Source: an uncultured Staphylococcaceae bacterium | GTDB taxonomy: Bacteria; Bacillota_I; Bacilli_A; RFN20; CAG-826 | Assembly (NCBI GenBank): GCA_964548325.1 | Contig: CAZJPX010000002.1 | Location: 1 to 29,544, forward strand | Length of the DNA: 29,544 nucleotides | Direction: 5' to 3' | Shown: piece by piece, positions 822 through 17,373 of the stretch | Numbering within the stretch: position 1 is the first letter of the stretch | How the letters are laid out: every line of letters begins with the position of its first letter | Translations under genes and position numbers: made by a program | Notes under the pieces: generated by a model | The model's input: the letters and a program-made list of their open reading frames with translations, nothing else | Told to the model about the DNA's origin: nothing | Databases searched by the model: none

Positions 822-3404
822 TTATTTATTTAAATTTTTAATTTTTTGATCAATTAATTCTAACTCATTTTTATAGTTGTTATATTTTTCTTTTTCAAGG
901 TCAACTTTTTGTTTAGGTGCTTTTTCTATAAAGCTTTTATTGTTTAAAATCGCTTCGCTACGTTTAACTTCTGCTAATAATTGTTCACGTTTTTTATTTA
1001 AAGTTTCCAAAACTTTACTGTTATTTTGTTCATCTATAACATAAATTATTGTGTTAGAGATAGCAACAAAAGTAAGACTTGTGAGATTTGAATCTTTTTT
1101 TATCTCTTTTGCAAATGTGAATCTCTTTAAATATTCGATAAGAGTTTTATCAAAATCTTCACCTACTATATTTAATGTAATTTCATGATTTGGTGCTAGA
1201 CCATTGTTTACTTTATACGATCTAACAAATTCAATTGTTTTAATTAATGCTTCGATCTTTTTAATAGAAGCTTTAAAAACCAATTCCTTATCATATGTAG
1301 GATATGATTCAAGCATAATCGAGTCTAAATGATTTGGAAGATTTAGATATAACTCTTCTGCAATAAAAGGAGAGAATGGATAAATCATCATGATAATAGA
1401 TTTTAGACAGTGTAAAAGAACTGCCAAAACATTTTTATTGTCACTATTTAAACTGACCTTGCTCATCTCAATATAGAATGAACAAAAATCATCGTAGACA
1501 AAATTATATAAATTTGAGCTAGCAACTCCAAATTCATAAGAATCCATTTTAGTTGTGATAGATTTTATTGCTTCTTCTAATTTTGTAAGAATATATTTAT
1601 CAACTAAATTTAATTTCTTTTTATCAATTGATATATTTTTGACTTTTAATTCTTCACATTTCATCAGAATATATCTCGCACTGTTCCAAATCTTGTTTAG
1701 ATAATTAGATGAACTTTTAACTTTCTCTTCATCATATCTCATATCTTGTCCAGGAGATGCAGTTGTAGCAAGGAAGTATCTAAGCGAATCAACTCCATAT
1801 TTATCTATGACATCAAGTGGATCGATTCCGTTTCCTAAAGTCTTAGACATTTTTCTTCCATGAACATCTCTAACTAGTCCATGAATTACTACATTTTCAA
1901 ATGGCTTCTTCTTTGTAAAATGTAGGCCTTGAAAATACATTCTTGCTACCCAAAAGAAGATGATGTCATATCCTGTTATCATACAATCTATTGGATAGTA
2001 TCTCTTATATAGTTCTGTATTTTCAGGCCAACCAAAGGTAGCAAAAGGCCAAAGAGCACTTGAAAACCATGTATCTAAAACATCTTCATCCTGAACCCGA
2101 TTTTTTGAATTATCAGGTGCTTTTTCATCAACAACGATTTCACCTGTTTTTTTATTATAATAAGCAGGTATTTGATGTCCCCACCAAAGTTGACGAGAGA
2201 TACACCAATCATCACAATTTTCCATCCAGCTAATCAAAGTTTTTTGAAATCTTTTTGGAAAAAACTTCGTTGCATCTTTGCTTTTTTCGTTTTTTAACAC
2301 CTTACTAGCAAGTGGTTTCATTTTAACAAACCATTGCTTAGAAAGGATTGGTTCAACTGTGGCATCACTTCTTTCAGAGTGAGCTACATCGTGTTCTATC
2401 TCTTCTATTTTAATTAGATTTCCATTTCTTTTTATTTCTTCTACAAGTTTCTCTCTACATTCAAGATTGTTCATACCTTTATAATGTAGAGCTTTTTCAT
2501 TCATCGTTCCATCGATATTCATACAAAGGATAAAATCCATCTTATGTTTCTTTCCAAGTATAAAATCATTTGGATCATGAGCTGGAGTACATTTCATCGC
2601 CCCAGTTCCAAATTCCATATCGACATATTCATCTGCAATAACTGGAATTTTTTCATTATTTGCGGGATTTACGACGAATTTGTTTAAAAACGAGGCATAT
2701 CTCTTATCCTTTGGGTTGACAATAACACATGTATCCCCAAACATCGTTTCAGGTCTAGTCGTTGCAACTTCAAGGTATTTATCTTCACCTACTACCTTGT
2801 ATTTGAAGTAGTAAAAATATCCTTTTTCTTTTTTATAGATTACTTCAACATTACTTAGAGCGGTCTTCATTTTTGGATCATAGTTAACTATTCTTTCACC
2901 ACGATATATGAGACCTTCATCATATAACATTTTAAATACTTTATAGACTGCTTTTGAAAATCCTTCATCAAGAGTGAATCGCTCTTTAGAATAATCAAGC
3001 ATCAAACCCATCTTCGCCCATTGTTCATGGATATGTTTTTGATATTCTTTGGTCCATTTAAAAGCTTCTTTTAAAAATCCGGCTCGCCCTAAATCAAATC
3101 TTGTTTTTCCTTCTTCAAATAGTTTTGCATCAACTTTAGCTTGCGTTGCAATTCCTGCATGATCTGTACCAGGTAAATATAAGACATCATATCCTTTTGC
3201 TTTTTTATATCTACAAGCGATATCTTGAAAAGTGTTATCGATTGAATGACCAATATGAAGTTTACCAGTTACATTTGGTGGAGGTATCACAATGGAATAT
3301 TTAGGTTTAGATAAATCACCTGCTAAAAAATATCCTTTCTTTTTCCATCTTTGATATTTACCTTCTTCTACTTTTTTAAAATCGTAACGTTTTTCTAAAT
3401 TCAT
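822..3404 (-). CDS. valS: valine--tRNA ligase
   Basis: [13 protein letters not shown] (HIGH), [23 protein letters not shown], KMSKT (KMSKS variant), C-terminal coiled coil. Confidence 0.99.
   Translation of the reverse strand: [860 protein letters not shown]

Positions 3405-17373: not shown

Follow-up and report, generated by a model that had tools for sequence, protein, structure and literature searches.

The window analyzed here is a 29,544-nucleotide stretch of contig CAZJPX010000002.1 from an uncultivated, low-GC gut bacterium of the genus Onthovivens/UBA4855 in the order RFN20 (working label G000). It contains two aminoacyl-tRNA synthetase genes that each carry an in-frame CGG codon, as follows:

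822 to 3404, minus strand: valS, valyl-tRNA synthetase, 860 aa (match to 1gax; full-length orthologues in all 60 genomes of the genus)
2097 to 2099, minus strand: CGG codon 436 of valS, very probably read as Trp (sequence, frame and genus alignment)
14617 to 17373, minus strand: ileS, isoleucyl-tRNA synthetase, 918 aa (matches to 8c9e and 1ffy)
16087 to 16089, minus strand: CGG codon 429 of ileS, very probably read as Trp (sequence, frame and TGG in congeners)

Both gene assignments are secured by structures in the PDB: the valS product matches the T. thermophilus ValRS (1gax) over residues 1-851 with an E value of 3.5e-193, and the ileS product matches the IleRS chains 8c9e (E 1e-290) and 1ffy from S. 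aureus (E 9e-285). The codons lie in the contexts NSKN[CGG][10 protein letters not shown] in valS and HKVK[CGG]HPAWGETR in ileS.

CGG is strongly avoided in the reading frames of this genome. Open reading frames (ORFs) were called mechanically, as the longest non-overlapping frames of at least 100 aa, and no gene finder was used. The sequence-only reading had found just two in-frame CGG codons in the window, and our recount agrees: valS codon 436 and ileS codon 429 are the only ones among 8,945 codons in 21 ORFs. The other two frames of the same ORFs contain 9 and 43 CGG triplets, and this excess (52 out of frame versus 2 in frame) indicates that the in-frame depletion is real. Related codons in the window number 30 CGT, 5 CGC, 34 CGA, 197 AGA, 13 AGG and 53 TGG. 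The whole assembly (896 kb, 29.3% GC, about 71% complete) contains 58 in-frame CGG codons in 268,597 ORF codons, or 2.2 per 10,000; both its GC content and this frequency agree with the genus code, which goes with low GC and fewer than about 6 CGG per 10,000 codons. If these codons specify Trp, CGG would account for about 3.7% of the Trp codons in the genome.

To assign a residue to CGG, its in-frame occurrences were aligned with two reference genomes, the nearest congener (G046) and G003. At the 35 sites that align with G046, the partner codon is TGG (Trp) in 25 cases and encodes Tyr in 3 and Phe in 2, and it never encodes Arg; with G003, Trp is found at 13 of 23 aligned sites. When both references are pooled, 38 CGG sites can be aligned, 27 of which match Trp and 31 an aromatic residue. 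At 7 of the 38 the aligned residue is not aromatic (Lys, Glu, Asn or Pro, for example), mostly in weakly aligned stretches, and a single site has Arg without Trp, in an alignment of 22-24% identity. The remaining 20 of the 58 CGG codons are located in proteins without a homologue in G046 or G003. The same pipeline places Arg at 58-69% of the sites occupied by CGT, CGC, CGA, AGA and AGG, with Trp at only 2 of 6,607 (for CGA, Arg at 424 and Trp at 1 of 615 aligned sites), and it places Trp at 81% of TGG sites. CGG is thus the sole codon whose most frequent aligned residue departs from translation table 11. These results bear out the proposals that code 11 mistranslates this genome and that, among the Arg codons, only CGG has changed; they run opposite to the outcome that had been named as refuting, a genome-wide preponderance of CGG at Arg columns. 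The internal controls of the sequence-only reading, in which CGA and AGG specify Arg and TGA is a stop, likewise hold across the genome, and TGA terminates both window ORFs to which they referred (6449-7837 and 9727-12003).

The default expectation is that CGG still encodes Arg and that the organism tolerates Trp-to-Arg replacements, a reading that the one aligned site with Arg and no Trp would favor. We give it practically no weight, because Arg is absent from all 35 sites in G046 as compared to its 58-69% occupancy for the other Arg codons, and because Trp appears at 25 of the 35, versus 0.03% for those codons. The probability of observing 25 Trp in 35 sites for an Arg-like codon is about 2e-80, and that of observing no Arg in 35 sites for a true Arg codon is about 1e-16. 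Moreover, the affected sites include invariant Trp columns. Among the recognizable CGG sites are the EWWKQL motif of Pgi and positions in gltX, transketolase and a NuoF-like protein (GxKW). In an alignment of ValRS from 69 genomes, all 11 CGG codons from within the genus occupy columns that hold Trp or aromatic residues (6 columns, 4 of them invariant Trp), and the only CGG from an outgroup genome occupies a column of invariant Arg. The codon statistics effectively refute the Arg reading. Comparably improbable are readings in which the ribosome does not decode the genomic CGG triplet as such, be it through C-to-U editing of the RNA (CGG to UGG), errors in the assembly, or +1 frameshifting or quadruplet decoding at CGG. 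Editing would indeed restore Trp, but it is made unnecessary by the dedicated Trp-like tRNA(CCG) found in 37 congeners (see below). Assembly errors would have to be 58 changes, all T-to-C at TGG, which is not credible, and the pattern recurs in independent assemblies. Finally, a shifted or quadruplet reading is at odds with the alignments, in which homology runs on in one frame through each aligned CGG and calls for Trp rather than Gly.

The two sites in the window conform to this genome-wide pattern. At the valS position, Trp encoded by TGG is present in 43 of the 54 other genus members, including G003 and G046, and CGG itself recurs in three genomes (G002, G018 and G037), all of which possess tRNA(CCG). 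Outside the genus this column contains Tyr (in one case Phe) in the other families of the order and Leu in the Thermus ValRS. The ileS position is TGG in both whole congener genomes, within the motifs KWTPAWGE in G003 and EWTPAWGK in G046, and among IleRS chains in the PDB it is Trp in 8c9e and Phe in 1ffy and 8wnf. The earlier description of these columns as typically Trp is therefore accurate for close relatives, whereas more widely they are aromatic (Tyr or Phe), with Leu in the Thermus ValRS. Since the other Arg codons align with Trp at a rate of 0.0003, chance can be excluded as the origin of the Trp matches at the two window sites.

Phylogenetic placement connects this genome to a known reassignment. 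The placement tree was built from one marker, ValRS, and recovers the genus as monophyletic (support 100/100), with G000 as the sister of G046 (99/98) and G014 as the next closest relative (100/100); both relatives carry tRNA(CCG). As the genus includes UBA6877 (G016) and Ca. Onthovivens merdipullorum (G031), it can be identified as UBA4855/Onthovivens, the RFN20 Bacilli for which CGG-to-Trp reassignment was reported by Shulgina and Eddy (2021, eLife; PMC8629427) and also in PMC13092985. The suspected link to the RFN20 clade is thereby confirmed; the genome sits inside the known genus, and nothing points to a separate, new reassignment event. The 2021 study inferred Trp for four species of the genus, and its table gives CGG at 0.9-2.5 per 10,000 codons (PMC8629427). 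The present genome shares with them the genus, the codon, its new meaning, a similarly low GC content (29%) and the rarity of CGG, and its sister species matches their tRNA pattern (ACG present, UCG absent, Trp-type CCG present). It is not one of the four; it is a 71% complete species representative whose own tRNA(CCG) is unassembled, and a new species-level member of an already published reassignment.

The tRNA genes suggest how CGG could have acquired its new meaning. A Trp-like tRNA(CCG) was first located by a scan of all tRNAs of G018. A pattern that combines the D-loop and the anticodon detects this motif in 37 of 59 congeners, among them the two nearest to G000, G046 and G014; BLAST searches with the G018 tRNA(CCG) recover it in 27, missing divergent versions such as that of G046. 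A pattern demanding a canonical GTTCRA T-loop yielded nothing useful, and position 55 is C in three of the tRNA(CCG) genes. The 22 distinct full-length genes that were recovered are 74-75 nt long, with a 4-nt variable loop and the D-loop sequence AATGGTA, and all combine G73 with a tRNA-Trp D-loop that lacks A20; their 1:72 pair is A-U in 11, G.U in 5 and G-C in 6. Each genome encodes a single TrpRS. A tRNA-Arg(UCG) gene is present in 8 of the 59 congeners and never co-occurs with tRNA(CCG), and neither tRNA is detected in 14. G000 encodes tRNA-Arg(ACG), on contig C116, and tRNA-Arg(CCU), and the sister G046, whose assembly is complete enough for comparison, shows the same set, with ACG present and UCG absent. 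No tRNA that would read CGG as Arg, either tRNA(UCG) or an Arg-type tRNA(CCG), was found in this genome or its sister species, a further point against retention of the Arg meaning.

In G000 itself, searches with ARAGORN, Infernal and sequence patterns found neither tRNA(CCG) nor tRNA-Arg(UCG) in the incomplete assembly. Its 14 tRNA genes compare with roughly 43-44 in complete congeners, and tRNA-Trp(CCA) is likewise missing, so the absence of tRNA(CCG) here is uninformative. The neighbors of the G046 tRNA(CCG) map to contigs C28 and C80 of this genome. C28 is rearranged at the mapped region and has no tRNA there, and C80 continues for 105 nt beyond the stop codon, and then breaks off, at the gene that, in G046, precedes tRNA-Thr(GGT) and then tRNA(CCG). 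We infer that G000 has a tRNA(CCG) of its own, probably located in a gap of the assembly; a search of public metagenome contigs for an extension of C80 found none.

Taken together, the codon-to-residue statistics, the phylogenetic placement and the tRNA(CCG) of the sister species make it very probable that CGG is a tryptophan codon in this organism. In the mechanism that we propose, tRNA-Arg(ACG), presumably after deamination of A34 to inosine, would read CGU, CGC and CGA as Arg, and with tRNA-Arg(UCG) missing, CGG would be left to one dedicated tRNA with the anticodon CCG. Because this tRNA is built like tRNA-Trp, with the discriminator G73 and a D-loop lacking the Arg determinant A20, it would be expected to be charged with Trp by the single TrpRS and to be ignored by ArgRS. 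After the change, occasional TGG-to-CGG transitions would be synonymous.

It is conceivable, though very unlikely in our judgment, that CGG is ambiguous or weakly assigned, being read partly as Trp and partly causing stalling or misreading, or that tRNA(CCG) has been lost and the codon is effectively unassigned and vanishing. The tRNA is missing from the assembly, the codon is very rare (2.2 per 10,000), 14 congeners show neither tRNA, and the Codetta study includes one species of the genus without either tRNA that has almost no CGG and for which the inference was '?' (PMC8629427). However, the 58 codons in this genome exceed the 32 in G046, which bears tRNA(CCG), and essential enzymes contain them at positions where Trp is invariant. 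In addition, none of the 35 aligned sites is CGG in both genomes, so these codons have arisen, or have been lost in G046, since the two split, which implies that CGG must be readable. The missing tRNA means little when only 14 of about 43-44 tRNA genes are assembled.

A Trp meaning for CGG can be compared with other departures from the standard code. The Absconditabacteria (SR1) read UGA as Gly and both CGA and CGG as Trp. CGG is translated there through a Trp-type tRNA, as proposed here, but in this genome CGA remains an Arg codon (Arg at 424/615, Trp at 1/615) and TGA a stop. Anaerococcus is also a low-GC member of the Bacillota in which CGG is reassigned to Trp, and it has a Trp-type tRNA(CCG) but lacks tRNA(UCG); it belongs to an unrelated class (Clostridia/Tissierellia) and represents an independent event, for which support is weaker owing to its even rarer CGG (PMC8629427). 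Mycoplasma capricolum, in which CGG is unassigned according to Oba et al. 1991 as cited in PMC8629427, appears from that citation to be similar in being a low-GC, wall-less-like lineage with near-zero CGG and a lost Arg tRNA, presumably an intermediate stage; unlike it, the genome described here uses CGG, with 58 codons that include conserved Trp positions.

Annotation with table 11 places Arg at about 58 positions of this genome where the cell most likely inserts Trp, and the same error is expected in most of the roughly 60 species of the genus. The affected Trp positions are often catalytic or structural, as in ValRS, IleRS, GltX, Pgi and transketolase. To our knowledge, sense-codon reassignments are very rare in bacteria, with a handful of lineages known, and this genome adds a further, independently assembled member to one of them. 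Since at least 37 of 59 congeners bear the Trp-like tRNA(CCG) motif, the reassignment extends well beyond the four species in which it was originally described, and the genus is well suited to studies of codon reassignment at an early stage, when the codon is still infrequent.

The history of CGG within the genus may be more complex than a single change. The 2021 study used UBA6877, listed as UBA4855 sp002451465 in its Figure 4 source data, as an outgroup (PMC8629427). In our maximum-likelihood ValRS tree, the 8 Arg-reading genomes with tRNA-Arg(UCG), UBA6877 among them, form one clade nested in the Trp-reading species; an AU test does not reject the alternative in which this clade branches off as the sister group of all other members (p 0.2). 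Were the nested placement true, either CGG would have reverted from Trp to Arg or the Trp-type tRNA(CCG) would have been gained several times, and the genus would offer an unusually direct view of the reversibility of sense-codon reassignment. We regard such a history, which depends on the topology of the gene tree, as rather unlikely. The tRNA(CCG) genes are highly diverse, with three acceptor-stem types and unrelated versions in sister species, which fits repeated replacement. In G003, tRNA-Arg(UCG) and tRNA-Arg(ACG) differ at only 3 of 77 positions, and we considered that the former might be a recent copy of the latter, making CGG as Arg a reversal. This idea is weakened by the AU result and by the distribution of the UCG anticodon arm, which includes an identical 22-mer and is shared with further genera and families in the order. 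Because of this shared arm, tRNA-Arg(UCG) is probably ancestral.

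The sequence-only reading proposed that CGG encodes tryptophan in this genome on the basis of two codons, one in valS and one in ileS. We confirmed that these are the sole in-frame CGG codons among the 21 ORFs (8,945 codons) of the window; both lie on the minus strand, in synthetase genes.

In-frame CGG codons of the window and the genes that contain them
822-3404, minus strand: valS ORF, 860 aa (match to ValRS 1gax, E 3.5e-193)
2097-2099, minus strand: CGG codon 436 of valS (sequence and frame)
14617-17373, minus strand: ileS ORF, 918 aa (match to IleRS 8c9e, E 1e-290)
16087-16089, minus strand: CGG codon 429 of ileS (sequence and frame)

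On the coding strand of all ORFs in the window (822-29542), CGG occurs twice in frame, 9 times in frame +1 and 43 times in frame +2, so it is avoided specifically in the reading frame. As had been stated, CGA and AGG are used in the window (34 and 13 codons, respectively) and TGA acts as a terminator, closing the ORFs at 6449-7837 and 9727-12003.

The meaning of CGG was examined across the whole assembly, which comprises 896,472 bases in 132 contigs (29.3% GC, about 71% complete), with the window as contig C2. Taking the longest ORFs that do not overlap, with a minimum of 100 aa, gave 737 ORFs (268,597 codons) that span 90% of the DNA. They contain 58 in-frame CGG codons, as compared to 1,519 TGG, 755 CGA, 880 CGT, 198 CGC, 5,823 AGA and 599 AGG. 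Each ORF was compared by tblastn to two whole congener genomes, and the codon opposite each of its codons was recorded. In the closest relative (MAG BRZ_KR__bin95, G046; 1.13 Mb, 26.9% GC), 35 CGG sites could be aligned, and they face TGG at 25, Tyr at three, Phe and Lys at two each, and Glu, Pro and Asn at one each, but never Arg. The other arginine codons (CGT, CGC, CGA, AGA and AGG) retain their meaning, as they lie opposite Arg at 58-69% of sites and opposite Trp at only 2 of 6,607, while 81% of TGG sites lie opposite Trp; among codons with at least 10 aligned sites, only CGG has a commonest partner that departs from table 11, the standard bacterial code. At the rates seen for arginine codons, the binomial probability of 25 Trp in 35 sites is ~2e-80, and that of no Arg in 35 is ~1e-16. 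Trp was also found at 13 of 23 sites aligned to the more distant congener G003. With both references pooled, 38 of the 58 CGG sites are aligned, Trp being present at 27 and an aromatic residue at 31; Arg occurs without Trp at a single site, where the alignment is 22-24% identical, and the remaining 20 sites lie in proteins that have no homologue in either reference. These data support the assignment of CGG to Trp in this genome, and they contradict the idea that CGG is still read as Arg with Trp to Arg substitutions being tolerated, which can be excluded. Frameshifting or quadruplet reading at CGG is likewise excluded, as homology continues in frame across each CGG and the residue required there is Trp.

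In the reverse direction, CGG codons in G046 (32 in all) lie opposite TGG in the genome under study at 13 of 18 sites, and those in G003 (24 in all) face variously Arg, Lys or Asn, and Trp at 1 of 12. None of the 35 aligned sites has CGG in both the genome under study and G046, indicating that the codons differ between these sisters, with synonymous turnover between TGG and CGG.

The two columns in the window had been described as typically Trp, which holds among close relatives, whereas more widely they are better described as aromatic positions. In an order-wide ValRS alignment of 69 genomes, 54 other genus members have TGG (43) or Tyr (11) at the valS 436 column and three (G002, G018 and G037) also have CGG; outgroup families have Tyr and in one case Phe, and the Thermus enzyme has Leu. 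The ileS 429 column is TGG in both whole congeners, and in IleRS chains from the PDB it is Trp (8c9e) or Phe (1ffy, 8wnf). The ValRS alignment as a whole serves as an internal control. Genus members have 11 CGG codons in it, every one in a Trp or aromatic column, and four of the six columns concerned are invariant Trp across the 69 genomes; the sole outgroup CGG (G020) occupies an invariant Arg column. In Candidatus Onthovivens merdipullorum (G031, L238), CGG occupies a ValRS column where the 67 other sequences all have Trp, and this species therefore probably shares the reassignment; the tRNA(CCG) pattern is absent from its assembly, which is 86% complete.

A candidate decoder, a Trp-like tRNA(CCG), is widespread in the genus. 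In G018 (L151:101-174) it is 74 nt long with a 4-nt variable loop, a G1.U72 pair and discriminator G73, and it matches the tRNA-Trp(CCA) of the same genome in length, variable loop and D-loop. BLAST with this sequence yielded matches in 27 congeners, and a D-loop and anticodon pattern found the gene in 37 of 59 (31 of 40 high-quality genomes); the G046 copy is divergent (75 nt). The 22 distinct full sequences were inspected at G73, position 20 and the 1:72 pair, the Trp-identity criteria of Shulgina and Eddy (PMC8629427). Discriminator G73 is common to all 22, as are the D-loop AATGGTA, which gains one base in G046 and G058, and a U at position 20 in place of the Arg determinant A; at 1:72, 11 sequences pair A-U, five G.U and six G-C. 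In contrast, tRNA-Arg(UCG) occurs in 8 of the 59 congeners, none of which has tRNA(CCG), and trpS is single-copy in each of five genomes checked. The codon statistics and tRNA distribution fit the published reassignment model. In this model tRNA-Arg(ACG), as ICG, would cover CGU, CGC and CGA, loss of tRNA(UCG) would leave CGG isolated, and tRNA(CCG), charged by the sole TrpRS, would decode it as Trp; the charging and inosine steps rest on established knowledge about the identity elements of Arg and Trp tRNAs, which PMC8629427 cites. RNA editing or sequencing error is an implausible source of the CGG codons, as it is needless given a dedicated tRNA and the pattern recurs in independent assemblies. 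Ambiguous or weak decoding of CGG in this particular species is a possibility, though an unlikely one.

ARAGORN and Infernal agree on only 14 tRNA genes in the ~71% complete assembly, as compared to 43-44 in nearly complete congeners; tRNA-Arg(ACG) and (CCU) are among them, and tRNA-Trp(CCA), tRNA(CCG), tRNA(UCG) and tRNA-Thr of any kind are not. In G046, tRNA(CCG) adjoins tRNA-Thr(GGT), and the gene that flanks them has its orthologue on contig C80 of the present assembly. This contig breaks 105 nt past the stop codon of that gene (bases 1-105), at the very point where G046 has the start of tRNA-Thr followed by tRNA(CCG), and the missing genes thus probably reside in assembly gaps. On the other side, contig C28 (bases 1-2323) carries two ORFs without synteny to G046.

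The genus includes 59 other species representatives, among them Bacillales bacterium UBA6877 (G016) and Ca. Onthovivens merdipullorum. UBA6877 corresponds to UBA4855 sp002451465 (Figure 4-source data 1 of PMC8629427), where it is the Arg-reading outgroup beside four UBA4855 species inferred to read CGG as Trp; later papers name the reassigned lineage Onthovivens. In a maximum likelihood ValRS tree (66 rows, 862 columns), the genus is monophyletic (100/100), the genome under study is sister to G046 (99/98), and this pair is sister to G014 (100/100). Because the published genomes are 94% complete or better, the present one (71%) is not among them, and it is a new species-level member of the published reassignment. 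The genus has meanwhile grown to about 60 species, and the Trp-like tRNA(CCG) is now found in most of them.

The origin of the Arg-reading species was examined with ValRS loci L001-L030 and L215-L253. In the free maximum likelihood tree, the tRNA(CCG) species enclose a single clade (100/99) made up of the eight tRNA(UCG) species and two with neither tRNA; if true, this nesting would mean that the reassignment was reversed or that there were several gains. Arguing against this, the alternative with the clade as sister to the rest of the genus is not rejected by an AU test (delta lnL 14.6, p 0.2), and the tRNA(UCG) anticodon arm is also present elsewhere in the order, in further genera and families (pattern matches in 80 of 201 genomes, with an identical 22-mer in two). 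Because of this recurrence, tRNA-Arg(UCG) is most simply ancestral. In G003, tRNA-Arg(UCG) (C9 9587-9663, L039) and tRNA-Arg(ACG) (C10 1310-1386, L040) differ in the anticodon base and in one stem pair, which makes 3 of 77 positions, and are more alike than ACG tRNAs between genus subclades. This suggests a recent duplication or gene conversion, but such near-identity does not suffice for claiming a new origin of tRNA(UCG).

The tRNA(CCG) genes comprise three acceptor-stem types overall. U is near-universal at tRNA position 55, and C replaces it (T-loop TCCGATT) in the tRNA(CCG) of G018, G054 (L160) and G041 (L161), as well as in the ordinary tRNA-Trp(CCA) of G046 (C9 237-310). The tRNA(CCG) of G014 (L168, on the 1,954-base contig C31) is unlike that of G046 and identical to that of G048 (L167), a member of a distant clade in the ValRS tree; the short contig may have been mis-binned, or the tRNA gene may have been transferred or replaced.
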